Shown here: one piece after another, positions 17,410-41,879 of the stretch
Layout: every line of letters begins with the position of its first letter
Position numbering within the stretch: the first letter of the stretch is position 1
From: Treponemataceae bacterium
GTDB lineage: Bacteria; Spirochaetota; Spirochaetia; Treponematales; Rectinemataceae
Assembly: GCA_963678065.2 (NCBI GenBank)
Contig: CAXXVZ010000002.1
Location: forward strand, 160,001-224,000
DNA length: 64,000 nt
Reading direction: 5' to 3'
Position numbers and translations under genes: made by a program
Notes under the pieces: model-generated
What the model was told of the DNA's origin: nothing
Database searches by the model: none
Seen by the model: the letters and a program-made list of their open reading frames with translations, nothing else

Positions 17410-17428
17410 GACATTCCTCCTTCGGAGA

Positions 17429-18718: not shown

Positions 18719-18721
18719 GAT

Positions 18722-24032: not shown

Positions 24033-24185
24033 GCAGTTCCCCCCTCCGGATTCTTCGAAATTCGATCGGACTCACGACATCGAAAATGCCCGGGATCGGA
24101 AAAACAAAAACCGCCCGATACGGAATCGAACCAGGCGGCTTATGTTCACGTGCTGCTCAGTTTCCCCTTGCCAAAACTGGGATGA

Positions 24186-26294
24186 TCAGATCGTAGCCAC
24201 CGTGAATTTATAGGTACTTGTCGTGACTCCGTCGGGCGCAACTACCTGAATTGTGATGACGCTGCCTGAGGATACGGCGACGGTGGAGCCTGATCCGGAT
24301 GCGACTGCGGTTCCGTTGACCGTCATCGACTTGATCCTGGTGGACATGGATGTGGGGACGATCGTAATGCTTCCGTTGGCCGCAGGCACCTTGATCGTAT
24401 AGTTGTAGTTCCACGGATCGAATTTGTTCGGCAGTGAATAGCTCACCGATTTCGAAACTCCTGCCCATGTGTAGGCCGGCGGTGCGGCTTGCCATGTGAG
24501 CGTCGTTCCGACCAGGTTCCCGCCCGCAATCTCGACATTGCTGAGCACGGAATATTTCTGGTACCCGTCCTTGCCGTTGTAATTCACGGGAGCCGAGGTC
24601 AGAAATTCGGTATTGTCGCCCATGATGCCCAGAAGCTTGAGGGATATCCAGTTGGTCCCGTCTTTCCACATATCGCCGATGAGGGTCGTCCGGCTGTTCG
24701 GAGCGTCGTTATTGCCGCGCAAGGTGGGAGAGCAACCGGCCTCGCCCTTGTCCACGACCTGCTGGAGTGCCTGCTCGAAGAGTTTCAGGTTGATCTCGCC
24801 GAGAGGAGTCTCATCGTGGCCCGTGAAGAGTCTGACGATCTTGCCGCCATCTTTCTTGTAATTCGAATAGGTCTGCTGCGCCATCGAAAGCAGAAGATCA
24901 GCTTTTACCTGCTGAACCGCGACATTGTCTGCGGAACCGGCCCGCGTGCAGCCGTAGATGTCAGAGGCGAAAATCAGGCCGTTCGCCTTGTCCTGAAGGA
25001 TAACATTGCCGTTCTCGTGTCCGGGAATGGCATAGACATTCAGATCGCAGCCTCCTAGATGGAAAACATCACCTTCGTCGATATTCTTGATTTTGGCCTG
25101 GTCGGCGGCCAGCGGGAAGAGGGCGGGTCCCATGGGCGACGAGGCTCCGAGCGAGGACCAGCCGCGTTCATTGCAGTAGACATCGACGCCGGCGTGCAGG
25201 AAGTTCGGCGCCTGGGCCCAATGATCGCCATGCGCGTGCCCGATGATCATGAAATTGGGCTTCGTCGCGATGTTTTTGTCGACGTACTCTTTCAGGTTCT
25301 TGATATTGTCCGTAATTTGCAGGCCATCGAACATGATCCCGACATCCTGCCCCTCGATGTACCAGGCCATCGCCCGGACGGATTCCGAGTCGTTGCAGAT
25401 GCGGTAGATCGCCGGACTGGTCGCGGTTTTCGCCTGGATGAGAAGATGCTGGAAATCATCCACCACGGGGCGGTACAGATGCCAGACGAAGGTCTGCATG
25501 GGGCTTATGGCCATGCCGTCCTTGACGGCGATCGCCTTGTAGACTACGTCCCTTCCGGGAAGCTGCGCGTTGGAGAGCATCTCGTTGATGTGCCCCTTGG
25601 TAGCCACGGAATAGACTGCGCTGGCGGTGGATGGAGTCGAGCCGTCGGTGGTGTAGTAGATGGTCGCGCCCGGAGTGGGGCAGGTCAGCTTGATGTAGCG
25701 CCGCGGGGCGATCGAGTTGGTCTTCGGCAGTGCCTGCACGGGAGAAACCGTCGTGCTCGTTATTCTGGAGAAAATCGCCTCCGCTTCGGCTGCCTGGATG
25801 GAGTCGTTCGGCGCGAATGCCGCGGCTGTCTTGCCGGACATGTAGCCTGCGGCCACCATGGTGTTTACGCTGGCCCGCGCTGCCGCGCTTATGGCCGTGC
25901 TGTCAGAAAACTTCGCGAGCACATTGATGGCAGAATCCGGGACCCTAAATGCCCTGGCAAAGACGACGGCGGCATCCTGGCGCGAAATCTCTTTGTCCGG
26001 GTAGAAATTCCCCGGTGCGCCCACGCTGATGATCCCCTCCTCGACGGCGGTATCGATCTGTTTTGCATATCTATCCCCGGCTTTGACGTCTTTGAGCTGC
26101 TGGAGGGGCGTTTTCCAAATATCGTTGTACTCGGTCGGATGCGGCCAGGCGAAGTAATCGGAAATCTTCGCGACAAATTCCGCTCTCGTGAGCGGGCGAT
26201 CTGCGGCCTGGGCAAACCCGGAGCCTGCGGTGAGTGCCACCAGGATGATGCATCCTGTGAACACCATAAACCATTTCGATGGCTTTCCACGCAT
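24186..26294 (-). CDS. Secreted SLH + Fn3/chitobiase-C-like + MBL-fold metallohydrolase + cadherin-like protein
   Basis: Signal peptide; SLH-like LTRAEF, FYPDKEISRQDAA, FAPNDSIQAAEA; ATIYYTTDGSTP; HAHGDH, PGHE, FASD, TGHD; C-terminal VVAPDGVTTSTYKFTV. Confidence 0.75.
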   Translation of the reverse strand: MRGKPSKWFMVFTGCIILVALTAGSGFAQAADRPLTRAEFVAKISDYFAWPHPTEYNDIWKTPLQQLKDVKAGDRYAKQIDTAVEEGIISVGAPGNFYPDKEISRQDAAVVFARAFRVPDSAINVLAKFSDSTAISAAARASVNTMVAAGYMSGKTAAAFAPNDSIQAAEAEAIFSRITSTTVSPVQALPKTNSIAPRRYIKLTCPTPGATIYYTTDGSTPSTASAVYSVATKGHINEMLSNAQLPGRDVVYKAIAVKDGMAISPMQTFVWHLYRPVVDDFQHLLIQAKTATSPAIYRICNDSESVRAMAWYIEGQDVGIMFDGLQITDNIKNLKEYVDKNIATKPNFMIIGHAHGDHWAQAPNFLHAGVDVYCNERGWSSLGASSPMGPALFPLAADQAKIKNIDEGDVFHLGGCDLNVYAIPGHENGNVILQDKANGLIFASDIYGCTRAGSADNVAVQQVKADLLLSMAQQTYSNYKKDGGKIVRLFTGHDETPLGEINLKLFEQALQQVVDKGEAGCSPTLRGNNDAPNSRTTLIGDMWKDGTNWISLKLLGIMGDNTEFLTSAPVNYNGKDGYQKYSVLSNVEIAGGNLVGTTLTWQAAPPAYTWAGVSKSVSYSLPNKFDPWNYNYTIKVPAANGSITIVPTSMSTRIKSMTVNGTAVASGSGSTVAVSSGSVITIQVVAPDGVTTSTYKFTVATI

Positions 26295-26434
26295 TGAAAT
26301 ACCTCCTGTAAAAATTGGATTCCCCCTGCATTGGTCTCTTCGGATTTCCGGAGCACCGACATGCTGTCAGGAACGAATGACCTATGAGCGCTGCCGCTTC
26401 AGACAGTCCCCTTGAGAATGAAAACCCGGGACCC

Positions 26435-26848
26435 TCAGGCCATCGGCCACTCGAAGAACTCGACGTAGCCGATCTTGCTGCTCTTTAAGAAACAGATCTT
26501 GTTCTTCTGGAATACTCCGTTCGTGATGGGCTCGAAAATCGTGAACTCACCGGTGGCCATCAGGTCGCTCACCGTCTTCTCGATATCGTCCACGTCGTAG
26601 CAGATATGATGGAAGACGAAGGCTTCGGTCGTTGTCGTCAGAATGTCCCCCACGAAACAGGGCTTTTCGGGATCGGCCGGAGACATTATCTCCACGACGA
26701 GGCCAGCCAATTGAACCCGCTGCACGAACATGTTCTTCGGAATGTGATGTTTTATGTCCTCATGAACCTTGGTGTAGCCCATCTTCAGATGCATTTCGAT
26801 CGCTTCCGTGATATTTCTGGCCACGAAGCCGAGATGATTCAGTTTCAT
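26435..26848 (-). CDS. VOC/glyoxalase family protein (methylmalonyl-CoA epimerase-like)
   Basis: LNHLGFVARNI, VEIMSP, HHICYDVDDIE, YVEFFE. Confidence 0.8.
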   Translation of the reverse strand: MKLNHLGFVARNITEAIEMHLKMGYTKVHEDIKHHIPKNMFVQRVQLAGLVVEIMSPADPEKPCFVGDILTTTTEAFVFHHICYDVDDIEKTVSDLMATGEFTIFEPITNGVFQKNKICFLKSSKIGYVEFFEWPMA

Positions 26849-26882
26849 ATCGCCGTTCTCCTTTTCGCCGGCGTCTTGGGCT

Positions 26883-27530
26883 TCAGACGTCCGATTCGTC
26901 GGTCAGCTGCATCTCCGTCGCCATGAATATCGCCTTGGTCGTCGTTTCGTACTGGTGCCAGGGGTAGATGCAATCTTCGTCGTACATGGGCTCGTGCGTG
27001 CACCCCGGGGCCATGGGATCCTCGCGGTAGAGGGTGGCGAGGTCCTGCTCCGCATACTGCTGCATCCTGCCGAAGCCGAGGATCTGTGTGTGGACCTCGC
27101 GGAAAGGTTTGCCGCCCCAATGGGTCTTGTGCAGGCCTACGTTCAGGGGTATGCCCTCCGCGAAGCACATGTTGACCTCGGTATTGCCGAGGCGGATCTT
27201 GGGAGAGCGCCAGAGCTGTACTCCTTTGTGTCTCTCCGCTTTCGTGGCCTCGTATACCAGGGTCCATTTCTTTTTGATCGCCTCGAAGAGGGCCTCGTGG
27301 TCAGTGTTCCTCTCGAAGTCCTCGATGACGAAGCAGCGCTCGACGTCCGTGATCATCATGTTGGTGACGACGGTGGATCTGAAGAAGCTCAGGGCCTGGT
27401 GCTTGATCCCGATACCCTTTCGGGCCAGGTTGAACACTATGCTCTTCTTCCCCACCGTGTAGTCCTTCTCGTCGAGAAGGTATTTCACGGAAAAGAAGGG
27501 TTCCACGAAATCCAGGGGATGTACGCTCAT
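26883..27530 (-). CDS. Cupin-like protein resembling the aldos-2-ulose dehydratase/isomerase cupin domain
   Basis: GLHKTH...FREVHTQILGFGRMQQY...MAPGCTHEP...YPWHQY; family assignment from memory. Confidence 0.5.
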   Translation of the reverse strand: MSVHPLDFVEPFFSVKYLLDEKDYTVGKKSIVFNLARKGIGIKHQALSFFRSTVVTNMMITDVERCFVIEDFERNTDHEALFEAIKKKWTLVYEATKAERHKGVQLWRSPKIRLGNTEVNMCFAEGIPLNVGLHKTHWGGKPFREVHTQILGFGRMQQYAEQDLATLYREDPMAPGCTHEPMYDEDCIYPWHQYETTTKAIFMATEMQLTDESDV

Positions 27531-27546
27531 TTTGCCCGAACCTCCC

Positions 27547-28587
27547 TCAGGAGTTCGTGAGGATCACTTTGACCTCTTCGGTTTGGCCGGATACGAGCTC
27601 GGAGAAAATTCTGGGGCCTTCGGACATGGGAAGCACTGAGGTGATCATCTGCTTCACGTCTACCATGCCATCGCTGATCATCTTGAGGCCTTCACGCATC
27701 TCGGATGTGTACATGTAGCTGCCGAGAAGCTTCAGTTCCTTGCACACGGCGTGCTTGTACTCGATCTCGATTTTGGGAGAGGCCATACCGACCATGATGA
27801 GCTTGCCGCCATTCCTCGCGATCTCGATGCCGGTATTGACGGTGGCGGCCACGCCAGCTGCGTCGAACACGACATCGACGCCGAGGCCTCCGGTCATCTT
27901 TCTCGTGATCGCCAGAACGTCCTCCCTGGAATTGATGCTGTCGGTCGCACCGCAATCCATGGCAAGCTTGAGGCGTTTGTCGATCAGATCGATCGCGATG
28001 ATCCTCTTGGCCCCGAAACCTTTAAGGCATAACACGCCCATGAGGCCGATCGGTCCCGTTCCGAACACGGCGACGGTTTTGCCGGCGAGGTCGCCGGCGT
28101 GCTTTGTCGCCCGCAGAGAGATGGAGAGAGGCTCGACAAGCGCGCACTCGTTGAAGGAGACATGGTCCGGCAATCTCATGATCTTCACGGCGGGGGCGAC
28201 GACGTAGTCAGCCATGGCGCCGTTGTAGCTGCCGGCCTTCATCGTGGTGCCGATGATGTAGCGATTGTCGCAGACGTTGTCGAGGCCATCCTTGCAGTCC
28301 TGGCAGGTGCCGCAGAAGAGATTGGTCACGACGCCCACGCGGTCGCCGATCTGCATCCCTGTCACGTCCTCGCCCAGCTCGGCGATTTCGCCGGAGAATT
28401 CGTGGCCCATAATGAGAGGAGGCACTCTCATTGCCGAGCCGCCCTTGTAGCCGGAGAGATCCGAGCCGCAGATGGCCACGGCTTTGACCTTCACGAGGAC
28501 TTCGCCCTTTTTCGGCTTTGGCGTCTCGACTTCGACGTACCGAAGATCGCGCGGACCGTAATAGACTAAGGCTTTCATGTAACGCAC
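27547..28587 (-). CDS. Zn-dependent polyol/sugar dehydrogenase (MDR family)
   Basis: ICGSD, GHEFSG, CGTCQDC...C, GTGPIG. Confidence 0.92.
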   Translation of the reverse strand: MRYMKALVYYGPRDLRYVEVETPKPKKGEVLVKVKAVAICGSDLSGYKGGSAMRVPPLIMGHEFSGEIAELGEDVTGMQIGDRVGVVTNLFCGTCQDCKDGLDNVCDNRYIIGTTMKAGSYNGAMADYVVAPAVKIMRLPDHVSFNECALVEPLSISLRATKHAGDLAGKTVAVFGTGPIGLMGVLCLKGFGAKRIIAIDLIDKRLKLAMDCGATDSINSREDVLAITRKMTGGLGVDVVFDAAGVAATVNTGIEIARNGGKLIMVGMASPKIEIEYKHAVCKELKLLGSYMYTSEMREGLKMISDGMVDVKQMITSVLPMSEGPRIFSELVSGQTEEVKVILTNS

Positions 28588-28711
28588 CTCGTCGCCTTGC
28601 GCCTCGGCGTATTCAAATATGGCGCGAACCTGCGCAGGTTTGGTTCACGCCATCGCCCGCCCCCCCCCGAAGCCTGGGCAAAGTGTAATCGTCATGACGA
28701 ATGTCGTTCGC

Positions 28712-29518
28712 CTATTCGGCACGGTAGGGGCGCAGGTCGTGTGCGGCGAAGAAATCGATGCCCCCCCTGATCTCGGAGGCGTAGTCCTTGAATACGGAGG
28801 CCTCGACGGAGACGATCTCCTTGTACGCTATCTTCTTCAGAGTCTCTAGGAAGGGAACATAGTCGAAGCCATCGTCAAGCCTCGGCACGATCCGCTCCGG
28901 GAAGGTTGTGAGGGGATTGTCGATGTGCACGTGCTTGATGTAGGGCTCGAATTCGACGATATCGGAGAGGGGTCGACCGAGTTCGACCATGTACCGATAA
29001 TCGATGAAGGTCTTCAGGTTGGGCGCGTCGAATTTCCTGATGAAGGCGATGGCTTCCGGCAGGTTGTTCACGATGTTGGAGAGCTTCTTTCCGAGAGGCT
29101 CGATGAGGACCGTGATGTTGCGCTCGGCGGCTATGCCGAGCAACATGGAGAAGAACTCGTCGAATTTCTCGGCTGCACCGGCGATATCCCCTTCTGCCGG
29201 GAGGCTGCGGGCCTTCCCGTTTCCGAATACGAAATACCGCGCGCCCATCTCGGCTGTCCTGTCCGCGGCTACATTGAGGAAATCCCTGTAGTACTTCAGG
29301 TCGAAGGATGGATCGGCCACGCGGGAATCGAGAGGTATCGGATTGTCGAAGACCTCCGCCGGTATCCCGCAGGACTTCAGCCTGGCGAGGGCCTGTCTGA
29401 ATCCGGCATCGTCGAAGGCCATCATTTCCCGTACGTGCAGCTCTGCGCAGTCGTAGCCGGCCTCTGCGATGGCGTCCAGATCCTTTATAAAGCCAAAACA
29501 GCTCAAACGCATTCTCAT
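28712..29518 (-). CDS. Sugar phosphate isomerase/epimerase (xylose isomerase-like TIM barrel)
   Basis: AEAGYDCAE, VFGNGKAR, IEPL, IDYRYM, HVHI, VSVEA. RBS GGAGG. Confidence 0.85.
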   Translation of the reverse strand: MRMRLSCFGFIKDLDAIAEAGYDCAELHVREMMAFDDAGFRQALARLKSCGIPAEVFDNPIPLDSRVADPSFDLKYYRDFLNVAADRTAEMGARYFVFGNGKARSLPAEGDIAGAAEKFDEFFSMLLGIAAERNITVLIEPLGKKLSNIVNNLPEAIAFIRKFDAPNLKTFIDYRYMVELGRPLSDIVEFEPYIKHVHIDNPLTTFPERIVPRLDDGFDYVPFLETLKKIAYKEIVSVEASVFKDYASEIRGGIDFFAAHDLRPYRAE

Positions 29519-29680
29519 GATGATCTTCTCCTCCCGTACAGACAATAAAACCTCCAGTCCTGCACCTTCGCTGGGACGATGCTTACGCCTCCGGCCTGCG
29601 TCCCGATACCGAACACTTTCCCTAGAGTCACTCGCGCGGGCGTCTCCCGACGCTGTGCATGTTACGTATACGATCCCGTG

Positions 29681-29733
29681 AAAAAATCCACCCTGACGGT
29701 GCCTCTCCGCATCCTTACGGAGAGGCACCGTCA
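29681..29733 (-). terminator. Strong hairpin after second dctM
   Basis: Perfect 16-bp inverted repeat TGACGGTGCCTCTCCG-N8-CGGAGAGGCACCGTCA (29694-29733); T-run follows on the minus strand after a short spacer. Confidence 0.6.
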
Positions 29734-29748
29734 AATCCTGTCTTTACC

Positions 29749-31029
29749 TTACCGTATGTAGCCAAAGTACCGTGGAAGGGTCATCGAAAGAGGCTCTATA
29801 TAGGTGATCAGGAACAGTATGACGATCTCGACGGCCAGGAAGGGCAGTACGCCCTTGACGACCTTTTCGAGAGGCAGCTTGGTCATGCCGCAGACGACAT
29901 AGAGGAGAAGACCTACGGGCGGCGTGAGGAGTCCGATCATGAGATTGACTACAACGACGATCCCCAGGAAAACCGGATGGATGCCGTAGCCGGCGGTGAT
30001 CTTCAGGAGAATCGGCACGAGGATGATCATCGCCGCCGTCCCTTCCATGAAGGTTCCGACGATGAGCAGCACGATGTTGATCGCGAGAAGAAGAAGTACC
30101 TTGCTGGATATGATGCTCGAGACGAAGATCGCCATGGCCTGTGGCACCTGTTCCACGACAAGCATCCAGTTGAAGACATTGGAGCAGGCGATGACAAGGA
30201 ACACGACGCCCGTCGTCTTCGCTGTGGCCAGGAGGGCTTCCAGGATCGCCTTCATTTTAAGATCTCTGTAAACGAAGACACCGACAACCAGTCCGTAGAC
30301 GACCGCGACAGCCGAAGCCTCGGTGGCGGTAAAGATGCCGCCGATGATGCCGCCCAGGATTATGAAGGGCATCAAGAGGGGAATGATTCCGTCCAGAAGG
30401 GCCAGTCCCATCTGTTTGAGGTTTGCGAACTTGGCGGCGCGCGGATAGTTGCGCTTTCGGGCGGTAACGTAGCACACGATCATGCAACCGATGGCTATCA
30501 TGACCCCCGGAACGATCCCTCCCAGGAAAAGGGCGGCCACCGAGGTAGAACTCAGCAAGGCGTAGACGACGAAGGGAATGCTCGGCGGGATGATCGGTCC
30601 CATGATAGCGGCCGAGGCGACAAGTCCGGCGGCGAAGTCCTCGTCGTAACCCTCTTTCTTCATTCCCGGGATCATCATCGATCCGACCGCCGAACAGTCG
30701 GCGATAGCCGAACCCGTTATTCCCCCGAAAAACATGGAAGTGACGATCGTGACGTGGCCAAGTCCTCCCCTGAGTCGACCCACGAATACCGTGCAAAAGT
30801 TGACAAGCCTCTTCGTGATTCCGGAACTGTTCATCAGCTCGCCGGCCAGGACGAAGAAGGGAATGGCCATGAAGGTGAAACTGTCGAGACCCGTGAACAG
30901 GCGCGTCGCAATCAGTCCAAGTGAAACACCCTTGATGATGAGGTAGATGACGCCAGCTGCGCCGAGGCTGAAGGCCACCGGCACACCGATGAGAAGGCAG
31001 GCGATAAAAGCTGCGATGGATTCCCACAT
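29749..31029 (-). CDS. dctM: TRAP transporter large permease
   Basis: AIPFFVLAGELM, GGITGSAIAD, IIPPSIP, TATEASA, TPPVG. Confidence 0.93.
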   Translation of the reverse strand: MWESIAAFIACLLIGVPVAFSLGAAGVIYLIIKGVSLGLIATRLFTGLDSFTFMAIPFFVLAGELMNSSGITKRLVNFCTVFVGRLRGGLGHVTIVTSMFFGGITGSAIADCSAVGSMMIPGMKKEGYDEDFAAGLVASAAIMGPIIPPSIPFVVYALLSSTSVAALFLGGIVPGVMIAIGCMIVCYVTARKRNYPRAAKFANLKQMGLALLDGIIPLLMPFIILGGIIGGIFTATEASAVAVVYGLVVGVFVYRDLKMKAILEALLATAKTTGVVFLVIACSNVFNWMLVVEQVPQAMAIFVSSIISSKVLLLLAINIVLLIVGTFMEGTAAMIILVPILLKITAGYGIHPVFLGIVVVVNLMIGLLTPPVGLLLYVVCGMTKLPLEKVVKGVLPFLAVEIVILFLITYIEPLSMTLPRYFGYIR

Positions 31030-31040
31030 ACTGTCTTCTC

Positions 31041-31535
31041 CTAACTCTTGATACTTGCTGCCACGGGCGTTTTGAAAATCTTGAACAGAAGTGCCAGGTT
31101 TTCAATGAGCATCATGAATATGCCGAAAGTCACGGCACTGTAGGGGACGATCATCGGGATTTCCAAGGCGCTGGATTTCTGTATTTTCAACAGGCTGAGC
31201 TGCTCTCCGGATTTGACAAGGATAATGACGAGGAAACTGATGACCACTAGACGGGATATGACCGTGAAAACGCGCTTGACACCCGGCTTGAAAAGGTCGG
31301 TAAACATCTCCACACCCACATGGGAGTTGTCCCTTGTGGCGAGCGCGCAGCCGAAGAACCCGACCCAGATCATCATGTACCGCCCGACTTCTTCAGTCCA
31401 TGACAATGCGTTGTTGAGGATGAACCTGAAGAATACGCCTACAGTGGTGTTGATCACCATCAGGCTAACCAGAACGTACACCAGATACTCCATTCCTTTT
31501 TCCGTTGCGCGCAAAAGTTTGCTGGCAGATATCAT
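31041..31535 (-). CDS. dctQ: TRAP transporter small permease
   Basis: Four TM segments, WTEEVGRYMMIW, HVGVE. Confidence 0.9.
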   Translation of the reverse strand: MISASKLLRATEKGMEYLVYVLVSLMVINTTVGVFFRFILNNALSWTEEVGRYMMIWVGFFGCALATRDNSHVGVEMFTDLFKPGVKRVFTVISRLVVISFLVIILVKSGEQLSLLKIQKSSALEIPMIVPYSAVTFGIFMMLIENLALLFKIFKTPVAASIKS

Positions 31536-31678
31536 TCCGCGATCCCTCCCCGCCCCGTCATGTTGTACGTCAAGGCTGCGATTCGTCCCGTACGCCCCGG
31601 AATGACGGTAAGATCGCCGCAACCGGGTCGCACGGGACGGGGGAGCGGAGTTTTGCGACTCCGCTCCTCTTCATACCG

Positions 31679-32707
31679 TTATTTTATGCTCTGCTTCTGG
31701 CCGGCGATGACGTCCGCCACATTTTTCAGGACGTCGTCGATGAGTTTCTGGTCGATCTTCGTCTTGAGCCAGTCGATGACCGGCTGTTGGGCCACTTTCT
31801 TGAACTGCTCGACTTCCGCTTCGGTCGGGGAATACACCACCATCTTCTGGTCGATCAGGGACTGAACTCCCTGCGAAGCTACGAACTGCTGGACTCCGCG
31901 TCCTACCGTGCAGCTGATCTGAGCGCTGTCGAGGACGATGTACTGAAGTTCGGGCGGGAGGCTCTTGAAGAACTTCTCGTTGATGATGAACCAGTCGACG
32001 CCGTACACATGGCCGTCGAGGGTGATGTATTTCTGGACCTCAGCCAGTTTTCCCATGAGGATCGTCGGGATCGGGTTTTCCTGTCCGTCGACGACCTTGG
32101 TCTGCAGTGCGGTGTAGGTCTCGGTCCAGGCGATGGGGGTCGGGCTGGCGCCCATGGCTTTGAGCATATTGACGTACAGCGGTGTTTCCTGGACGCGGAT
32201 CTTGAGACCCTTCATGTCGGCGGGCGTCTTTATCGGCCTGACATTGTTCGTGAAGTGACGGAAGCCGACCTCGGCGAAAGCCAGACAGCGCATCCCGGTC
32301 TCTTTGAGGAACTGAGCCCTGAGTTTATCGCCGAAGGGACCATCCATGACCTGCCATGCGACTTCGCCCGAGGGGAAGAGGTAGGGAATATCGGTCACCA
32401 TCGCCGAGGGAAAGAAGTTGGAAATGACGCCCGAGGAGATGCCGGCTTCCACAGTGCCGGCCTTGACGCCTTCGACATACTCGCGCTCTGCGCCGAGGGA
32501 TCCACCGCCATAGACCTTCACGTTGATCTGGCCGCCGCTTCTCGCGTTGACCAAACTCGCGAAAGCGAGAGCCTGCGCGTGTTTGCGCGATACCGTGGCA
32601 TCGGTCGAATCGGCGTGCGCAAGCTTCAGTTCGAACACCTTTGTCTGGGCGAAGACCGCAGTCACTGCCAGGGAAACCATGAGTACGCAGATTAAGAATC
32701 TTTTCAT
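31679..32707 (-). CDS. dctP: TRAP transporter substrate-binding protein
   Basis: Signal peptide, LGAERE, GFRHFTN, KGLKIRVQ, TALQTKVVDGQENP. Confidence 0.92.
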   Translation of the reverse strand: MKRFLICVLMVSLAVTAVFAQTKVFELKLAHADSTDATVSRKHAQALAFASLVNARSGGQINVKVYGGGSLGAEREYVEGVKAGTVEAGISSGVISNFFPSAMVTDIPYLFPSGEVAWQVMDGPFGDKLRAQFLKETGMRCLAFAEVGFRHFTNNVRPIKTPADMKGLKIRVQETPLYVNMLKAMGASPTPIAWTETYTALQTKVVDGQENPIPTILMGKLAEVQKYITLDGHVYGVDWFIINEKFFKSLPPELQYIVLDSAQISCTVGRGVQQFVASQGVQSLIDQKMVVYSPTEAEVEQFKKVAQQPVIDWLKTKIDQKLIDDVLKNVADVIAGQKQSIK

Positions 32708-32760
32708 CACTCCACCTCCTGATAAAATTGGGATCGGCGGCACTGCGCCGATATCAAAAA

Positions 32761-33726
32761 TCAACTGGGCCAGGCGATTGTATACAGATGCTTCCCGCCG
32801 TTCGTCGGACCGAGAAGGAGGGCTTTCAGCTCTTCCTCGTTCCGCTGCGACATCAGCTTGCTGTCGGGGAGCTGCCCCACGGGGAATTTGGCAAGAATGT
32901 CATCGTGGAGCTTGACGAGGTAGTTGAGCACGTTCTCGATCGCCTTGTAGGCCTTGGTCGGCTCGGCGAGCGTGGCCTTCCCGAGAACGCCTTCGGGGAA
33001 GGTGACGCACTCGATGCCAGTCCCTCCGATGATGCAATGACCAGGGATGGGATTCCCGTAGATGTCCCCGCCCTTGTCCACGTGGCCGGGAGGAAGGAAG
33101 CCGCCCAGCTTCGTGTCCTCTGCGTGTTCGAGCTGGCACATCTCGGGGAAGAGGGCCATCGAGATCGAGGTCTCTGCCTCGTCGGCGTGCTGGAAGGGCG
33201 TCTCGAATGGGCCGCCGTGAGCCTTGTCCTTCAGGTCAGTTCCCATGACACGCGGAAGATCGACGAAAATGACGACTGCGGGAACCTGATACTTTTTCCC
33301 CCATTCCTGGATCGCCGAGGGGAGGGCGTATTCCTGCCCGTGCATGCTGAGGAATATCTGCTTCCTGAATCCCGTGTTCCAGAATCCGGAGATCATCGAC
33401 CTGATGTGGTCGCAGAAAACGCTGTCGGGGAGCGGAACGGTCCCTGGCTGGCCGATGTGGTGGAAGGGATGAGATCCGTACCACATGGGCTCGGCGACCG
33501 TGCAACCGGTCGCTTGAGCCACCATCTCGGCTATCCTCGTGACGATGAAGGTATCCTCGCCGTAAGGGCCGGCCTTGCCGTGGTTCTCCGTGGATCCGAT
33601 GGGGATGAGGATGACATCATCTTTCTTGAGCCTCTCCTCCGCATCGTATTTCGTCATTGTCTGGAAGTAAATCTTGGAGGGCCTGTCCATGTGTCCCTCG
33701 CGTACCGGCAAATTCCAATTAGGCAT
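32761..33726 (-). CDS. iolN: Creatininase-family hydrolase, close to 3-dehydro-scyllo-inosose hydrolase
   Basis: YFQTMT, IPIGSTENHG, GEDTF, YGSHPFHHIGQPGT, GFWNTGFRKQI, GGPFETPFQHADEAETS and PEGVLGKATLA match my recollection of Thermotoga IolN. Substrate here is uncertain. Confidence 0.75.
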   Translation of the reverse strand: MPNWNLPVREGHMDRPSKIYFQTMTKYDAEERLKKDDVILIPIGSTENHGKAGPYGEDTFIVTRIAEMVAQATGCTVAEPMWYGSHPFHHIGQPGTVPLPDSVFCDHIRSMISGFWNTGFRKQIFLSMHGQEYALPSAIQEWGKKYQVPAVVIFVDLPRVMGTDLKDKAHGGPFETPFQHADEAETSISMALFPEMCQLEHAEDTKLGGFLPPGHVDKGGDIYGNPIPGHCIIGGTGIECVTFPEGVLGKATLAEPTKAYKAIENVLNYLVKLHDDILAKFPVGQLPDSKLMSQRNEEELKALLLGPTNGGKHLYTIAWPS

Positions 33727-33755
33727 ACTCTGTTCTCCTCTCGCGAATAGTAGGG

Positions 33756-34115
33756 CTAGATCCGATGGCTCTTGAGCTGGGGCGCGTAAACCCACACGAA
33801 CTTGAGCTTCGTCGTCCCCGTGTTGACGATCTTGTGGGTGGCTCCAGGCGGGTTGTAGACGCAGATTCCGGGCTTGAGGTCGATCTCCTCGTCAGCCGTG
33901 ATGAATTTCCCCGTTCCTTCCAGGAAGAGCATCACTTCCTCTTCGGTATCATGCTTGTGCTCGGGGACCATGGAACCCGGCTCCGTCTCGTTCACCCCGA
34001 GGGCGAGATTCTGCGAGCCCACGGTCTTCTCCGAAATGAGGATCCACGAGGCCCTTGGCGGAGTTTTCCGCTCGGGCTCAACCTTGTTGATGTCGACTAC
34101 CTTCAATCCTGACAT
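33756..34115 (-). CDS. Cupin domain protein
   Basis: PEHKHDTEEEVMLFLEGTG...PPGATHKIVNTG. Confidence 0.88.
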   Translation of the reverse strand: MSGLKVVDINKVEPERKTPPRASWILISEKTVGSQNLALGVNETEPGSMVPEHKHDTEEEVMLFLEGTGKFITADEEIDLKPGICVYNPPGATHKIVNTGTTKLKFVWVYAPQLKSHRI

Positions 34116-34134
34116 GATTCTCCCTCTCCTTGTC

Positions 34135-34881
34135 TCAGCCGATGAAAATGCCGCCGTTCACGTCGAGGGTAACCCCGGTGACCCAGTCGGACCTCGCCGA
34201 TGCCAGATAGATGACCGCGTCCGCCACGTCCTCCGGATACCCGTCCTTCGATACGGCCCTGCCGGCGTTCCACGACGCGAAAACTTCCTTTGTATACTGC
34301 CTCGTCTGCTCGGTGAGCATGGGGCCCGGGCAGATGGTGTTCACATAGATGTTGAAGGCTCCGAGCTCCTTGGCGAGGCACTTGGAAACACCGATGAGGC
34401 CAGCCTTGGAAGCCGCGTAGTTGACGCCGACGCCCGGCCTGCCCGTCCTGCCGCCGAGGGAGGCGATATTGACGATCTTCCCGGAGCCCTGTTTCTTCAT
34501 GACCGGCGCGACGGCCTTGCAGCAGAGGAAGGGGCCGGTGAGGTTCACCTTGATGACGAGATCCCAGAGTTCGAGGCTCATCTCATCGAGGTTCTTGTGC
34601 CTGGAGATGCCCGCGTTGTTGACGAGGACGTCGATCCGCCCGAACTTTTCGGTCGTCCGGGCGACAGCCTCGACAGCCTCGGCCTCATCGGTCACGTTCA
34701 CTTTGACCGCGATTGTCCTCTCTCCCGCGGGATCGAGCTCGGAGGCGACCTTCCGCGCCGCCTCGAAGTTCATGTCCCAGAGGGCCACAAGAGCCCCTTC
34801 CGCGAACAGTTTCCGCGCGATCACTTCGCCGATTCCGTTGCCCGCGCCTGTCACTACGGCGACTCTATTTTCCAGTTCCAT
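34135..34881 (-). CDS. SDR family oxidoreductase
   Basis: TGAGNGIG, NNAG, YAASK, DVNGG. Confidence 0.93.
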   Translation of the reverse strand: MELENRVAVVTGAGNGIGEVIARKLFAEGALVALWDMNFEAARKVASELDPAGERTIAVKVNVTDEAEAVEAVARTTEKFGRIDVLVNNAGISRHKNLDEMSLELWDLVIKVNLTGPFLCCKAVAPVMKKQGSGKIVNIASLGGRTGRPGVGVNYAASKAGLIGVSKCLAKELGAFNIYVNTICPGPMLTEQTRQYTKEVFASWNAGRAVSKDGYPEDVADAVIYLASARSDWVTGVTLDVNGGIFIG

Positions 34882-34898
34882 TGTTTTGTCCCTCTCCA

Positions 34899-36632
34899 TC
34901 AAAGCTGGCCGGCGGGAACGTAATCGTCCCACATGGCATGCATTTCGCTCATCGGCACATCGAAAACAGCGTTGTTCGGAGGCAGGGGTTCATCCTGCAT
35001 GAATTCGGGCATGGGATGGAATTCCTCGGAGGCGCCGGATCTCCTGTTGAACTCCCGTTCGGTCATGATCGTGTCGTAGCCGAGGCGGACAACATCCTCC
35101 ACGCTCATCTCCCATCCATACCTGCCCTTGAGCAGGTTCGCGAACATCTCCGGCCTCTTGAGGAAGGGAGGCCGTACGAAGAGGCAGAGGCCGAGGGTAT
35201 CCAGGAGGGCTGCCCTGATCTGCAGCTTCCTCGAGACCGCAACCTGCCCTTCGGCCTTCAGAGGATCGAGGGTTTTCAGGGTCTCGAAGGCGTTTCCCGC
35301 CGTGTGGTCTGCGCCCATCGGCGAGGTGACATAGGTGACGCCGTTGCCCTTGACTCCCCTCGGGTCGTAGCCCGGCATGGCCTGGCCCTTGATGACCGGC
35401 ACGCGCCTGATTCCGAAAACCCTTCCGGTAATCTGGGCGCCGTTGCCGAGAACCCGGCCGAGGCAGGTCCCCTGGCCGATCTGGCGGATGAGATCCTTAG
35501 CGCCTTCGGCATCGCCGAACCGGATGATGCCGGCCTCCATGGCCACGCCGATGGCGGCCCCGGTCTCTATCCCGTCAACGCCGACCTGATTGCAGAGATT
35601 GTTCAGTTCCGCGATGTCGTCGAGGCTGCCGATCCCGCAGTTGGAGCCCAAAAGAGAGATATTTTCATATTGTATGGAGGCGACGATCTTTTTGCCGCTC
35701 CTGTCCGGAAAGATGTTGCTGCACTTGATCACACAGCCGGCGACGCAGGGCTTTCCCGCCCCACCCTCCCCGCCGCGCGCAAGTATTTCTTCCCGGACGC
35801 GTTCTCCCGCTATCTCGTCTGCGCGCTCGAAGCTGCCCGAGCTGAAATTCCTGGTAGGAAGGAGTCCCGACGCGTTGGCCAGGGCAAGAATCGCCGGAGT
35901 CCCAAAGAGATTCCGGTTCTCGGTCTTGGGATCCTTAAGGAGGGCTTCCGTCATCCACTTCGACGTGGCCGCGAGGAGTTCCGGATCGAAGATATCCGGC
36001 TTGAAGGTCGAACCTGCGTCGTCGATGACTATCGCCTTCAGCCCCTTCGACCCCATGAGAGCGCCCAGTCCGCCGCGGGCGGCGTAACGTATCTGCACAT
36101 CCTCGTTGTCCGGGGAAGCGATCCCCGCTCCGTACATGAGCATCTCACCGGCGGGACCGATGCAGAAGATGCCGACCTTTTCCCCGAATCGCTCGCGGAG
36201 AGCGGCGACCGCCTCTGCAACTTGCAGACCGCGCAATTCGGGTGCAGGTTCCATCCGGGATCCCTTCGCCGCGACGACGAGGACGTCCAGAGAGGAAGTG
36301 GCGGGCGTATCTTCTATTACGAGGGCCCTGATGCCGAGCTTCGCCAATCTCTTGCCGGCGAGGCCGCCGACATTGCTCTCCTTGACGCCCCCCGTCAGCG
36401 GGCTCTTTCCTCCTATGGACAGCTGCCCCGCCGTCGTCACGGAGGTATCCGCGAGGAGGCCCGAGGCGAAAATGAGCTTGTTCCGCCGGCCCACCGGCTC
36501 GCAGGTCGGAGGCACTTCCCGCAGGAGGAAATTTGCGAGGAGAGATCTTCCTCCCCATCTCATTTCCTCTTCTGTCGCCTTCTGCTCCAGGATGCTCCTG
36601 TCGCGGACATTCACGCGAAGAATGGTGTTCAT
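34899..36632 (-). CDS. Aldehyde:ferredoxin oxidoreductase (W/Mo-pterin AOR family)
   Basis: KSPLTGGVKESNVGG, AARGGLGALMGSKGLKAIV, CVAGCVIKC, GYDPRG, GADHT, LGLCLF. Confidence 0.92.
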   Translation of the reverse strand: MNTILRVNVRDRSILEQKATEEEMRWGGRSLLANFLLREVPPTCEPVGRRNKLIFASGLLADTSVTTAGQLSIGGKSPLTGGVKESNVGGLAGKRLAKLGIRALVIEDTPATSSLDVLVVAAKGSRMEPAPELRGLQVAEAVAALRERFGEKVGIFCIGPAGEMLMYGAGIASPDNEDVQIRYAARGGLGALMGSKGLKAIVIDDAGSTFKPDIFDPELLAATSKWMTEALLKDPKTENRNLFGTPAILALANASGLLPTRNFSSGSFERADEIAGERVREEILARGGEGGAGKPCVAGCVIKCSNIFPDRSGKKIVASIQYENISLLGSNCGIGSLDDIAELNNLCNQVGVDGIETGAAIGVAMEAGIIRFGDAEGAKDLIRQIGQGTCLGRVLGNGAQITGRVFGIRRVPVIKGQAMPGYDPRGVKGNGVTYVTSPMGADHTAGNAFETLKTLDPLKAEGQVAVSRKLQIRAALLDTLGLCLFVRPPFLKRPEMFANLLKGRYGWEMSVEDVVRLGYDTIMTEREFNRRSGASEEFHPMPEFMQDEPLPPNNAVFDVPMSEMHAMWDDYVPAGQL

Positions 36633-36633
36633 G

Positions 36634-37698
36634 CTAGTGATCCTTCTCCTCGGTGGCTGATATCCTTCGATCGCTCCCCATCACGGCGAGGATCCCGTTT
36701 ATGGCATCCACGACCGTCGCGGGAACATCTATCCCCAATCGTCGGCTCTCCTCTTCCTTCTTCAGCTCCAATTCGCCGGGGAGGAGAATCTCGGTGACCC
36801 CGGGCTGTTTCTTCAGCGCCTTGATTTCCGTGACGTACTCGTCCATCGTCTGCGCGAAAGCCTCAGGATCGACGAAGCGGCCGATGTCGGCGGCAATGAA
36901 ACAGGCCCCGACGCCCGTCGCTCCCTCGAGTTCGTGGAAACTTCTCAGCCTGCGCCCGTAGGCCGAACCGGAGATCACGCCGGAGAGGACGTCGATCATC
37001 AGCGCGAGTCCCGAGCCCTTCGGTCCGCCGAGGGGCAAGAGGGAGCCCTTCAGCGCGCGCTTCGCGTCCGTGGTGGATTCACCGTTCTCGTCGAGGGCCC
37101 ATCCGGCGGGAATACTCTCCCCGGCGAGCGAGGCCAGGCGGATCTTGCCCCTCGCAACGACGCTTGAGGACATGTCGAGGATGAGCGACTTCCCCTCGCC
37201 CGACGGAACCGCGATGGAAATGGGATTGGTTCCGAAGAAAGGCTCGCCGCTGCCGTAGGGAGCCACTGAAGGGTTCCCATTTGTCGTTATTATGGAAACG
37301 ACTCGATCCTGCGCCGCCGCAGCCGAGGAAAAGTAACCGAGAGCGCCTACATTGTTGGTGTTCCGGAGAACGACCATGCCGAGGCCGTGACGTTTCGCCT
37401 TCTCGACACAGAGACGGAGGGCTCGGAAGGCGGCAACCTGCCCGAGTCCGTTGTTTCCGTCGAGGATGGCGGTGGTATCGTCGTCCTTGATTGTCTCGAC
37501 GTGGGTTGGAAAGCTGAGCATCCCGACCGAAACCCTTTGGGATACCATGCGGAGCAGATTGATTCCGTGAGTATTGACCCCGCGCATATCCGCGCTGACG
37601 AGAGCGGCGGCGGCGATCCGGGCGTTCTCTTCATTTTCACCGAGACGGATGAGGATCTCCTCGGCAGTCTCGCGCAGCTTGGTTTCCGGTATCCTCAT
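36634..37698 (-). CDS. Ldh_2 (malate/L-lactate/ureidoglycolate) dehydrogenase family
   Basis: ADMRGVNTHG, LDGNNGLGQ, GTNPISIA, LDMSSSVVARGK, GGPKGSGL, LLPGELE. Confidence 0.9.
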   Translation of the reverse strand: MRIPETKLRETAEEILIRLGENEENARIAAAALVSADMRGVNTHGINLLRMVSQRVSVGMLSFPTHVETIKDDDTTAILDGNNGLGQVAAFRALRLCVEKAKRHGLGMVVLRNTNNVGALGYFSSAAAAQDRVVSIITTNGNPSVAPYGSGEPFFGTNPISIAVPSGEGKSLILDMSSSVVARGKIRLASLAGESIPAGWALDENGESTTDAKRALKGSLLPLGGPKGSGLALMIDVLSGVISGSAYGRRLRSFHELEGATGVGACFIAADIGRFVDPEAFAQTMDEYVTEIKALKKQPGVTEILLPGELELKKEEESRRLGIDVPATVVDAINGILAVMGSDRRISATEEKDH

Positions 37699-37705
37699 AT
37701 ACAGT

Positions 37706-38377
37706 TCACTCCTCGACCAGTCCAAGGGATTCGAATACTTTCTCGAGGCTGTTGAGCTCGACGCTCGAGGTCCCGCCCTTCAGGAGCTTCGCCTTCGACT
37801 CCTCGAACTCCACCCTCTTCAGGGATTTCTCGAGCACCGACTCGCATTCTTCCAGTCTGACGACGACCATTCCGTCGTCGTCGCCGAGGATCAAGTCGCC
37901 TGGGAAAATTGTCACCTGGCCGAAGTTCAGCGGATAGTTGATGAGACCGAGAACTCCCTTGGCTGTTCCCCGGATGCAGAAGCCCCGGCAGAAGATGGGG
38001 AAGCCCATCCTCTCGATCTCGGCAGAATCTCGGATGCAGCCATCGATCGCGAGGCCGGCCAAGCCCCGGGCGACCGCGGCTGTCGCCATCAAACCGCCCC
38101 AATAGCCATAATCGTAAGCCCCACCGACGCTGGCGACGAGGACAACGCCCTCGGGCGATCGCTGGAGTGCCTTGTGCAACATCAGGTTGTCCCCCGGGGC
38201 GCACTGAACCGTGTACGCGGGACCGCATATACGGGTCCCCTTAGCGGCCGGCCTGATGGCGTTCTCGATGAAGCCCTTCCTGCCCGAGGCCTCATACACG
38301 GTTGCAACGTCCAGAGCCTTGAATGCTTCGATAATCGAGGCCGCAGGCTTCCGGATCTCCTTCCTCACATGTGTCAT
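37706..38377 (-). CDS. RraA-family HMG/CHA aldolase (LigK-like)
   Basis: VATVYEASGRKG, CGPAYTV, PGDNLMLHKAL, YGYWGGLM, IDGCIRDS, PGDLILGDDDG. Confidence 0.82.
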   Translation of the reverse strand: MTHVRKEIRKPAASIIEAFKALDVATVYEASGRKGFIENAIRPAAKGTRICGPAYTVQCAPGDNLMLHKALQRSPEGVVLVASVGGAYDYGYWGGLMATAAVARGLAGLAIDGCIRDSAEIERMGFPIFCRGFCIRGTAKGVLGLINYPLNFGQVTIFPGDLILGDDDGMVVVRLEECESVLEKSLKRVEFEESKAKLLKGGTSSVELNSLEKVFESLGLVEE

Positions 38378-39060
38378 AGTACCGTCCTATTTCTGATAGT
38401 CAGTTGATTGATATTGACTAGCGAAAGATGCAGATGCTCTCGCATCGCCTTCTCTGCCGCGTCAGGATCCCCGTCTACGATGGCCTGAAGGATCTTCTTG
38501 TGCTCGTCCACGGTCTCGTAAAGGCGCTTCAGCTCGAAGCGTTTGATGAAGAACACCCGGATCCGGACGATGTGCGCCAGGGTAGTCCGATAGTACTCGG
38601 TCAGGAAACTGTTGCCCGATGCCTCCACGATCGCGGTATGTATCTGGTATCCCGACAGCAATGAGTGGCGCAGCTCTACCTCATCGTGGATTTTGAAGGA
38701 ATCATGGTTCTCAAGGATCTCCGCAAACTGCACGTGCGATGGAAAGGACGCCGCGATGCGCGCGGCGGCGCACTCGAGGATTTCGCGCACTTCAAAAATC
38801 TCGTGGATCAAATCGATACCGATCGGCGCCACAAAACAGCCCTTGTTCGGCACGACGACGATGAGGCGATTGTGCTCCAGCTGTTGCAGGGCTTCCCTCA
38901 CGGGAGTTTTGCTGACACCGAGATCCTTGCAGATACTCTGTTCGTTCAGGTACTCCTGCGGCTTCAATTCATTCTGAACAATTTTGTTCTTCAGGATCTC
39001 ATATACTCGTCTCTTTTTGTTGATCTCAGAACCGATCTCGACGATTGTTTCTACCGGCAT
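38374..39060 (-). CDS. GntR family regulator (FCD domain)
   Basis: LGVSKTPVREALQQL, EIFEVREILE, HTAIVEASGN, EHKKIL, MREHL. RBS AAGGAG. Confidence 0.93.
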   Translation of the reverse strand: MPVETIVEIGSEINKKRRVYEILKNKIVQNELKPQEYLNEQSICKDLGVSKTPVREALQQLEHNRLIVVVPNKGCFVAPIGIDLIHEIFEVREILECAAARIAASFPSHVQFAEILENHDSFKIHDEVELRHSLLSGYQIHTAIVEASGNSFLTEYYRTTLAHIVRIRVFFIKRFELKRLYETVDEHKKILQAIVDGDPDAAEKAMREHLHLSLVNINQLTIRNRTVL

Positions 39061-39079
39061 ATGTGGCCTTCTCCTTAAA

Positions 39080-39151
39080 TAGCGATCAGACATCGCTAAG
39101 CTATCGCCGATATATCGGCGTTATTTTCACCCCGTTCCAAGAATCTGTCAA
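39080..39151 (-). promoter_or_regulatory. Promoter with palindromic operator upstream of GntR operon
   Basis: TTGACA-N17-GAAAAT, perfect palindrome CGCCGATATATCGGCG (39105-39120), and a second IR TAGCGAT-N5-ATCGCTA (39080-39098). Confidence 0.7.
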
Positions 39152-39205
39152 CTAAAATCTTCACGTTTTCACGAATCTTTAAATGTGCCTCCTTTCAAGC
39201 CGATC

Positions 39206-39233
39206 CTGGAGAAATTGTCAGAAATTTCTCCAG
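39206..39233. promoter_or_regulatory. Inverted repeat upstream of the -35, possible regulator site
   Basis: CTGGAGAAATT-N6-AATTTCTCCAG. Confidence 0.4.
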
Positions 39234-39409
39234 TGCTACGGTACACAGCGGATATCCGACCGCGATCCGTATTAGATATTAATAATATATGATTGACATA
39301 TTGGGAAGATGTTCCTGTTCTCCCAATAAATCAGCCCTGCCCCATTTGTCAAGGGAAAGTTGAGAGGAGGCCATGGTTGGAGCCTGATATCGCAGCCATG
39401 CTCACGAAT

Positions 39410-39443
39410 GTGAAAAGACCGCGGTTGACCGCGGTCTTTTCAC
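39410..39443 (-). terminator. Rho-independent terminator (bidirectional shape)
   Basis: GTGAAAAGACCGCGGT-TG-ACCGCGGTCTTTTCAC, about 45 bp downstream of the esterase stop. Confidence 0.75.
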
Positions 39444-39489
39444 CCCATCAGGATTATCCTGAGAGATATCGAACGAATCCCTGTCGATA

Positions 39490-41328: not shown

Positions 41329-41659
41329 AAAAAACTCCTTAAAAAAAGGATCAAGAATATTGCGTACAGGCAATAATCCACTAATCCACTGCCCGCAGAA
41401 CCTGACTATCCTGGCAGACAAATAATTTCCACGCCGCCAACATACTCGACAATTTGCGGACTTCATTGTGCAACATCAACAAGCAATCTATTTGTTCATT
41501 ACAGCCAACTGTCGTATCCTCCTCCCGAGGCATCTTTGACTTTGACAAAAGAACCAATGACGTCGCAACTTGCCATACAAATCTTGTCAAGAGGGTAAAG
41601 CTCTCACCGTTTATGCTGCCGCAACCCATCAATGTTTTGTGGGCAATTGTGATTGGACC

Positions 41660-41870
41660 ATCGGACGAGATTGTTTCCAGTTGCTGCAGGGTCTCCTTCT
41701 TGGGAGTCGTGCTGATACCACGATCAATGCGGAAACTCTGTTAATTAGGTACACGGCGGCTTCAATTCATCCCGGACAATCCTGTTCTCCAAAAACCCGT
41801 ATACCCAACGCTGTCTGGCGATCCCGCAATCGATCTCGACGATTGTTTCTACCGGAACGCTAGGCTCACT
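41660..41870 (-). pseudogene. Decayed copy of the 5' part of the GntR gene
   Basis: DNA similarity to 38860-39075, e.g. CGATCTCGACGATTGTTTCTACCGG, GCGGCTTCAATTCAT, TCCAGyTGyTGCAGGG. Start codon is lost and the frame is broken. Confidence 0.75.
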
Positions 41871-41879
41871 CCTTGGATA

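Follow-up and report, generated by a model that had tools for sequence, protein, structure and literature searches.

In Thermotoga maritima, inositol is degraded by IolG-IolM-IolN-IolO, a route in which the ring is oxidised twice and IolN opens the resulting 1,3-diketone by hydrolysis. Intermediates of this pathway are described in two reports (PMC5931981, PMC12632266). This study was concerned with a gene cluster that combines an IolN-like hydrolase with an aldolase of the HMG/CHA type (CHA, 4-carboxy-4-hydroxy-2-oxoadipate), located in a 64,000-nucleotide stretch of a Treponemataceae bacterium genome (contig CAXXVZ010000002.1, positions 160,001 to 224,000; the whole stretch is called the window). 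The cluster is headed by a GntR regulator and recurs across phyla, and the reading that we favour, with moderate confidence, is that it would degrade quinate or 3-dehydroquinate without oxygen by the full route given below.

The cluster resembles the Thermotoga pathway in its IolN-family hydrolase, its Zn-dehydrogenase, its candidate TIM-barrel epimerase and the predicted double ring oxidation followed by hydrolysis. However, the window IolN falls in a clade of its own, in which residues have changed, orthologs of IolM and IolO are missing, and the window has a TRAP transporter, a tail of cupin, aldehyde:ferredoxin oxidoreductase (AOR), Ldh_2 dehydrogenase and CHA aldolase, and a link to dehydroquinases. 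With the gallate/protocatechuate pathway it shares a close aldolase homologue that keeps the tested residues and the same predicted final substrate, whereas here no dioxygenase was found among the genes scanned and CHA would be formed from a saturated ring without oxygen. By analogy, the cluster resembles Thermotoga inositol ring opening at its front and the gallate/protocatechuate pathway at its end, but on the features compared it belongs to neither pathway. Escherichia coli YcjQ-YcjR-YcjS also combines a zinc-type alcohol dehydrogenase (Zn-ADH) with a TIM-barrel 4-epimerase on a cyclic 3-keto compound, and YcjR matches the structural model of the window TIM barrel at Z 24.4; the identity is 22-24% only, and the system serves as a model for the step, not as an ortholog.

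Quinate is an abundant plant acid, occurring free and as chlorogenic acid, and both oxidative and reductive gut routes for it are said to exist. To our knowledge, hydroaromatic fermenters form no aromatic intermediate, and we know of no enzymes identified for them. Descriptions of fermenters that specialise in such compounds date from 2002. Of all metabolites, quinic acid shows the strongest tie to a coffee-associated gut species, and the passages on it assign no pathway (PMC11602726). Aerobic quinate catabolism runs via dehydroshikimate and protocatechuate (PMC12610400). The present cluster is like this pathway and E. coli ydiM-ydiN-ydiB-aroD in that dehydroquinate would come first and in its AroQ/AroD, AroE/YdiB and YdiM/N-like neighbours, but here no aromatisation is predicted and the ring would be opened by hydrolysis. 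A precedent for such an opening is the hydrolysis of 5-hydroxy-1,3-cyclohexanedione in the Clostridium scatologenes phloroglucinol pathway, a retro-Claisen reaction of this hydroxy-1,3-cyclohexanedione by a metal amidohydrolase-like enzyme; unlike the cluster, that pathway starts by reducing an aromatic compound, uses a cyclase-family enzyme and ends with triacetate cleavage (PMC10470551). The earlier note on this DNA knew of no published description of the proposed route, and none was found in the open literature, a search that did not cover paywalled papers and supplements.

The cluster and its IolN-like hydrolase

Family scans found all 14 genes of the co-oriented run that the earlier note had described at 26435-39151, on the minus strand and in the order it gave. 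The run begins with a GntR/FCD regulator (38374-39093; PF00392 and PF07729), followed by the RraA-family HMG/CHA-type aldolase (37706-38377; PRK09262, 192.6 bits against a cut-off of 179), Ldh_2 (36634-37698; PF02615, 366 bits), AOR (34899-36632; AFOR_N and AFOR_C), a short-chain dehydrogenase/reductase (SDR) predicted to be ring dehydrogenase 1 (34135-34881; PF13561), a cupin predicted to be a ketol-to-aldose isomerase (33756-34115; PF07883) and the IolN-like creatininase-fold hydrolase, the predicted ring-opening enzyme (32761-33726; NF041098, 512.8 bits against a cut-off of 245), whose start at 33726 has a ribosome-binding site. Intergenic gaps from gntR through iolN are -4 to 29 nt. Next come a DctP-DctQ-DctM TRAP transporter (29749-32707; PF03480, PF04290 and PF06808), an AP_endonuc_2 TIM barrel predicted from its model and structural matches to be a keto-cyclitol epimerase or isomerase (28712-29518), a Zn-ADH of type A predicted to be ring dehydrogenase 2 (27547-28578; ADH_N and ADH_zinc_N) and accessory genes described in the last section. 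The PDB relatives of DctP are too distant for naming a ligand. In line with the earlier note, which saw none in the cluster, the window proteins scanned gave no dioxygenase, IolD or IolE family match, and no ring-cleavage dioxygenase family was present among the 14 cluster proteins; the whole genome was not searched for these.

Related loci were collected in two ways. A first scan, which needs exact 8-residue matches, gave 75 named loci, and HMM and protein searches of genome samples gave 67 further regions, which cover all top-scoring matches of two of these searches and matches of about 310 bits only in part. The final count was 137 loci, 74 with an IolN of the window's clade (clade Q) and 63 with another IolN; two loci of the window's own genome, two E. 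coli loci and the duplicate contigs L114, L118, L133, L134 and L136 were left out. Loci of 15 kb or more, termed long, numbered 43 in clade Q and 46 outside it. Clade Q is uncommon in the genome samples searched, with 2 genomes out of 401 for Spirochaetota, 7 out of 401 for a Bacillota sample and 3 out of 351 for a Lachnospiraceae sample; a plasmid search gave no IolN relative, and the nearest relatives of the window cluster are from Spirochaetota. None of the 75 named loci came from Ilyobacter or Propionivibrio, which, given exact 8-residue matching, is no evidence of absence.

Clade Q was defined from a FastTree tree of 121 IolN rows, in which the window protein lies in a 68-row clade with support 100, separate from the inositol clades linked to IolM and IolO (the T. 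maritima protein itself is outside the tree). For partial genes, and for loci added once the tree had been built (L135, L137-L146), the clade was decided from identity and motif. An IolO gene was present in 1 of 74 Q loci versus 42 of 63 other IolN loci. Residues E35, H37, D46, H168 and E173 (counted from 33690), which we take to be creatininase-type metal ligands, are conserved across all IolN clades. At residues 142-149 and 217, clade Q is unlike the IolO-linked clades; for example, position 145 is W in 53 of 53 non-Q rows and small aliphatic in clade Q, and position 147 is R or K in 64 of 68 Q rows. By comparison with creatininase, the substituted stretch presumably lines the pocket. The PDB held no close solved IolN structure (best E 7e-13).

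Association with dehydroquinase and shikimate genes

The substrate was assigned mainly from the neighbours of clade Q. Of the 74 Q loci, 33 have a gene for AroQ, AroD or AroE nearby, against none of the 63 loci with another IolN; among long loci only, the counts are 26 of 43 and 0 of 46. The partners near Q loci are AroQ (19), type I AroD (13), AroE (5) and transporters of the major facilitator superfamily (MFS) resembling YdiM/N (9), the last being 31-35% identical to E. coli YdiM across most of its length; in E. coli, ydiM and ydiN adjoin ydiB and aroD. Clade Q is the only IolN clade that has dehydroquinases (of two unrelated types), AroE and YdiM/N-like transporters as neighbours, and the quinate-family substrate proposed in the earlier note is supported: we hold this substrate class to be quite probable, and it is better supported than the individual step assignments. 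The loci fetched last agree, with Aro genes in 2 of 2 new Q loci versus 0 of 9 non-Q loci. We give no weight to a Fisher test on the association (p about 1e-9), since related loci do not count as independent observations.

The Aro partners differ by lineage. Spirochaete loci have an AroQ pair, a different AroQ type is found in Smithellaceae, Deltaproteobacteria and Methylomirabilota, and type I AroD is found in Lachnospiraceae and one planctomycete; the partners are separate recruits. The copies in the cluster also seem to be more than biosynthesis requires. All 5 genomes tested for AroD have a second copy besides the one in the cluster, and of 5 genomes with the AroQ type, 4 encode a type I AroD elsewhere and the fifth has the cluster AroQ alone. 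The window carries an extra type II 3-dehydroquinate dehydratase, AroQ (11752-12198, minus strand; TIGR01088, 190 against 169.85). That it is the biosynthetic copy was rejected, since type I AroD (C2:83534-84184, beside an AroE match) and aroB/C/A (on C3) lie elsewhere in the genome.

The tandem AroQ pair was seen in 10 spirochaete loci (L003 at 20450-20896, L004, L005, L007, L009, L045, L047, L050, L053 and L058), often followed by a second TIM-barrel paralog, and the window has a single AroQ. The second copy of the pair forms its own clade, with EVFISN for EVHISN and RK for RE. The His of EVHISN is presumably needed for dehydration and its loss should abolish activity; this copy may serve as a subunit without catalysis of its own, or its activity may be a different one.

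Predicted route and alternative explanations

The order of steps was read from genes that replace one another. The core order aldolase, Ldh_2, AOR or aldehyde dehydrogenase (ALDH), cupin and IolN is kept across several phyla. In the 43 long Q loci, SDR is present in 20 and Zn-ADH-B in 17 (both in 0, neither in 6), Zn-ADH-A in 29 and Zn-ADH-C in 13 (both in 0, neither in 1), and AOR in 28 and ALDH in 5 (both in 0). The TIM barrel accompanies Zn-ADH-A in 28 of 29 loci and Zn-ADH-C in 0 of 13. Cupin, Ldh_2 and RraA occur together in 33 of the 43 and are jointly missing from the other 10, so the arrangement is not chance; the 10 carry an HMG-CoA-lyase-like gene. Both cluster variants have the TIM barrel and the two positions for a dehydrogenase, from which we infer that these enzymes act before ring opening, whereas cupin, AOR/ALDH, Ldh_2 and RraA would follow it. 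The earlier note had let a cupin or an isomerase make the 2-hydroxy-aldehyde. Co-occurrence favours the first, the cupin being the likely ketol isomerase; the TIM barrel was rejected as a post-cleavage isomerase since it is absent from the 13 Zn-ADH-C loci, and would instead be paired with the second ring oxidation.

The predicted route has eight steps. First, the acid would be imported by the TRAP system; esterases may release it from esters, and AroQ could supply it from shikimate-derived dehydroshikimate by hydration. Secondly, SDR (Zn-ADH-B in other genomes) would oxidise quinate to 3-dehydroquinate. Third, the keto-cyclitol would be epimerised or isomerised by the TIM barrel and oxidised by Zn-ADH-A (elsewhere by Zn-ADH-C alone) to a 3,5-dioxo-4-hydroxy reductone, the same tautomer being expected whether oxidation is at C4 or C5. 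Fourth, the IolN-like enzyme would hydrolyse the ring to HOCH2-CO-CH2-C(OH)(COOH)-CH2-COOH. The cupin would then convert this ketol to the 2-hydroxy-aldehyde (step 5), AOR or ALDH would oxidise the aldehyde to the 2-hydroxy acid (step 6), Ldh_2 would give CHA (step 7), and the RraA-type aldolase would split CHA into pyruvate and oxaloacetate (step 8). The predicted balance is quinate + 2 H2O = pyruvate + oxaloacetate + 8 [H]. Comparative genomics favours this route, which the earlier note had proposed; the AOR/ALDH swap fits it, and the genes, usually arranged as RraA-Ldh_2-AOR-cupin-IolN, run opposite to the predicted sequence of steps.

The individual enzymes were compared with solved structures and curated models. 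The best PDB match of the aldolase is 3NOJ (E 1e-45), and the window protein retains N71, H75, R123, D124, G144, T145 and K147, all of these except H75 being kept also in nearly all of the 44 rows compared. N71 and K147 are proposed as binders of the CHA carboxylate (PMC5065237). PDB matches gave no function for the cupin. The TIM barrel model (pLDDT 95) was compared with VIA-align, as were the other structures. It matched IolO best (Z 26.0, root-mean-square deviation 2.5, 245 aligned), followed by ketose 3-epimerase (Z 24.7), YcjR, and AsbF and a QuiC1-like protein (both 21.9); the model favours an epimerase more than a dehydratase.

Three other explanations were considered. In the first, which is unlikely, the substrate and the IolN ring opening are the same and the late chemistry differs: an AroE encoded elsewhere would oxidise quinate, SDR/Zn-ADH-B would act after ring opening, and Ldh_2 would be a malate dehydrogenase removing oxaloacetate, or the aldolase would cut an earlier intermediate. 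The nearest solved relatives of Ldh_2 are malate and L-sulfolactate dehydrogenases, the genome has three AroE matches elsewhere, AroE lies beside the cluster in five loci, and all the pathway steps are predictions. However, cupin, Ldh_2, AOR/ALDH and RraA behave as one block (33 present, 10 absent), and turning the ketol into a 2-oxo acid needs an isomerisation, an aldehyde oxidation and a 2-hydroxy-acid oxidation, which are exactly the reactions that the cupin, AOR/ALDH and Ldh_2 families supply.

The second explanation, an improbable one, is that an inositol or some other cyclitol that bears no carboxyl group (deoxy- or methyl-inositol) is opened as in Thermotoga and continues by a uronate/aldarate-like route to a pyruvate aldolase. 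In its favour are the NF041098 score of the hydrolase, the IolO structural match and a Gfo/Idh/MocA gene in 9 of 75 loci. Public sources also call Q-clade proteins 3-dehydro-scyllo-inosose hydrolase (P0010, P0030, P0035, P0122, P0135, P0136 and others), a name which gene context suggests is an over-annotation. However, the window Zn-ADH fails the IolM model (205 against 450 bits) and the TIM barrel fails the IolO model (45 against 300 bits), whereas the control locus L092 passes both (511.8 and 416.5 bits). The true IolM-IolN-IolO clusters belong to other clades, with IolN about 52% identical to that of the window, the inositol-type loci examined have sugar ABC systems where the window has TRAP, and an inositol substrate gives no account of the dehydroquinase, AroE and YdiM/N link.

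The third explanation, a route that passes via dehydroshikimate and then an intermediate that is aromatic or derived from an aromatic (the TIM barrel being a dehydroshikimate dehydratase, or gallate or 3,5-didehydroshikimate being opened and then hydrated to CHA), would fit the normal formation of dehydroshikimate by AroQ/AroD, the AsbF and QuiC1-like matches and esterases that could cut galloyl esters, but is highly improbable given that no dioxygenase was found among the window proteins scanned, that epimerases rank above dehydratases by 2.5-4 Z units, that the TIM barrel is absent from all 13 Zn-ADH-C loci and that two dehydrogenases are present in nearly all long loci, as fits a saturated ring.

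Several points weigh against the quinate route. First, the counts are not independent: most Q loci were recruited by similarity to the window IolN, and clade Q is a single lineage in which several loci are near-identical. Secondly, no Aro gene was present in the DNA available for 41 of 74 Q loci, the Aro-negative loci include 17 of the 43 long ones and all 5 named from Chloroflexota, 4 Aro-positive loci also have biosynthetic aro-pathway neighbours, and the window aroQ is 20 kb from iolN. Third, the window has no AroE-type quinate dehydrogenase, and therefore step 2 rests on an uncharacterised SDR. The dehydratase equilibrium lies toward dehydroshikimate, away from the proposed direction, and loss of water with aromatisation could turn the reductone into gallate. 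In addition, a sister clade of IolN carries cupin and AOR, often with Ldh_2, without RraA or Aro genes; the module is not specific to quinate. Lastly, the aldolase is under the LigK/PcmE cut-off (TIGR02798, 179.6 against 304.5) and has G at the D102 site, where 14 relatives have D; its G-x20-R-D-x2-E is, we assume, the second of two metal-binding motifs. Two such motifs exist among HMG/CHA aldolases (PMC5065237).

NF041098 is also passed by a distant clade, at about 310 bits. The loci of the sister clade, which lies just outside clade Q (L086, L088, L096-L099, L101, L102, L116 and L121), have cupin and AOR in 8 of 10, often Ldh_2, a CoA-transferase in 7 of 10, a nitroreductase and a 303-residue protein of no known family; none of the 10 has an RraA, IolO or Aro gene. 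They may represent a third pathway, one that acts on a ring acid lacking the tertiary hydroxyl.

A wider reading, to which we give an even chance, is that of a cross-phylum family of anaerobic quinate/shikimate pathways with one reductone-hydrolase clade and at least two ends, possibly three, that can replace one another: cupin-AOR-Ldh_2-CHA aldolase in anaerobes of the environment, an HMG-lyase-like retro-aldolase in gut Lachnospiraceae and a citrate-lyase-like system in Oscillibacter. The HMGL-like and CitE/CitF enzymes come from families that cleave tertiary carbinols, and C1 of quinate would yield such a centre. The short HMG-lyase-like variant is present in gut Lachnospiraceae, for example the cultured strains Faecalicatena orotica DSM 1287 (L028) and Hespellia stercorisuis DSM 15480 (L030), which have none of the genes of steps 5-8; there the HMG-CoA-lyase-like enzyme would cut the step-4 product into oxaloacetate and hydroxyacetone. 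In Oscillibacter L020 (3650-9378) and L032 (1405-7200), a Q-clade IolN is followed by a DASS transporter, a small CitD-like open reading frame, a CitE-like gene (231.8 bits, under 443) and CitF (534 bits, above 501), with an operator-like site upstream in L032. These genes, from only two related genomes, may serve to cleave a citrate-like product, or the link may be incidental. A BaiCD-like flavoenzyme beside AroD was noted in short-variant loci, mostly of Lachnospiraceae (L024, L026-L031, L037, L042, L059, L071 and L137); it may reduce dehydroshikimate as an electron sink.

If the favoured quinate route is true, the cluster would be a complete, balanced enzyme list for anaerobic quinate use and would give a non-aromatic route into CHA, with clade Q as a marker of this capacity. 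It would also give a fixed catabolic role to a tungsten/molybdenum-type AOR. The wider reading, if true, would supply the missing genetic basis for fermenting hydroaromatic acids by a non-aromatic route, and the inositol-pathway name IolN would be wrong for many of the proteins that now bear it.

Regulatory sites and accessory genes

Upstream of gntR, a sigma70-like promoter (TTGACA-17-GAAAAT, 10 of 12 matches; 39123-39151, minus strand) is followed, just downstream of its -10 box, by a palindromic putative GntR operator, CGCCGATATATCGGCG (39105-39120). The promoter is the best of 7 promoter-like sites in 23000-42300, where 8.0 are expected by chance, and its position is the argument for it. 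The operator scored 25.1 bits by a matrix from 9 relatives only and ranks second in the 5.27 Mb genome. Rank 1 (28.4 bits, at 41901) lies in a decayed duplicate that covers the promoter and operator of gntR and the start of the gene (41756-41967, minus strand; 75% identical to 38958-39169, frame broken). Among held-out long loci, an operator-like site of at least 16 bits was found in 13 of 32 Q loci versus 1 of 41 non-Q loci, and in most cases it immediately precedes gntR, the aldolase gene or the gene for the HMG-lyase-like enzyme. Thus, a common palindromic motif appears, from sequence, to tie the cluster variants together. A weaker site at 19354 (13.1 bits), ahead of the block from the second TRAP to aroQ, is not significant alone. 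A terminator-like hairpin of 20 pairs with a T tail follows dctM (29692-29735, minus strand). Neither promoter nor terminator counts are above shuffles (7 versus 8.0 and 15 versus 16.1).

The same-strand run is larger than first described and extends on the minus strand from 41328 down to 9813, the added genes coding for esterases, a racemase-family protein, a second TRAP, AroQ, an M24 protein and MoaD-like and MoeB proteins. The earlier note had placed aroQ, MoaD/MoeB and several esterases in the same region: aroQ, MoeB and the esterases are there, although aroQ lies about 14 kb past the end of its run, and the MoaD-like open reading frame (12324-12617) gave a weak ubiquitin-like match with a C-terminal GG. 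This gene and MoeB/ThiF (9813-10556; ThiF, 244 bits) flank aroQ and likely service the AOR cofactor. The M24/creatinase-fold protein (10607-11842, start uncertain) is near the cluster in several spirochaete loci. The second TRAP transporter (16399-19225) has relatives adjoining the cluster in many loci and is 71-87% identical in L013. On the plus strand, an ALDH of the AOR-replacing type (8340-9797) is 59-73% identical to the ALDHs inside L009, L025, L036, L054, L060, L061, L062 and L077.

A probably secreted esterase, identified by model matches, lies upstream of gntR (39490-41328); the decayed duplicate is about 430 nt upstream of it and may have put it under the same regulator. A large, probably secreted esterase (19671-23159; PHB-depolymerase-type esterase models above cut-off) might release quinate from esters. 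It is a tandem internal duplication with a spacing of 1692 nt, up to 90% identical.

The 215-residue cupin-fold protein (26883-27530), in 7 of 75 related loci, has no Pfam or NCBIfam match, and its profile gave no PDB sequence match. Its structure matches the aldos-2-ulose dehydratase (AUDH) cupin domain 4A7K (Z 17.0, root-mean-square deviation 2.9, 205 aligned; the next match is 9.8). The racemase-family gene (Asp/Glu type; 23352-24032, PF01177), which travels with it, and the VOC-family gene (26435-26848, PF13669) are also each in 7 of 75 related loci. A probably secreted hydrolase with SLH and metallo-beta-lactamase-fold parts (24186-26294; 40 bits against a 100-bit cut-off, beta-lactamase core) is also near the cluster in L004, L007, L011 and L015. 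The VOC, racemase-family and AUDH-cupin-like genes are contiguous in L005, L006, L013, L046, L060 and L062, and in the window (23352-27530) they are separated by the gene for this SLH hydrolase.

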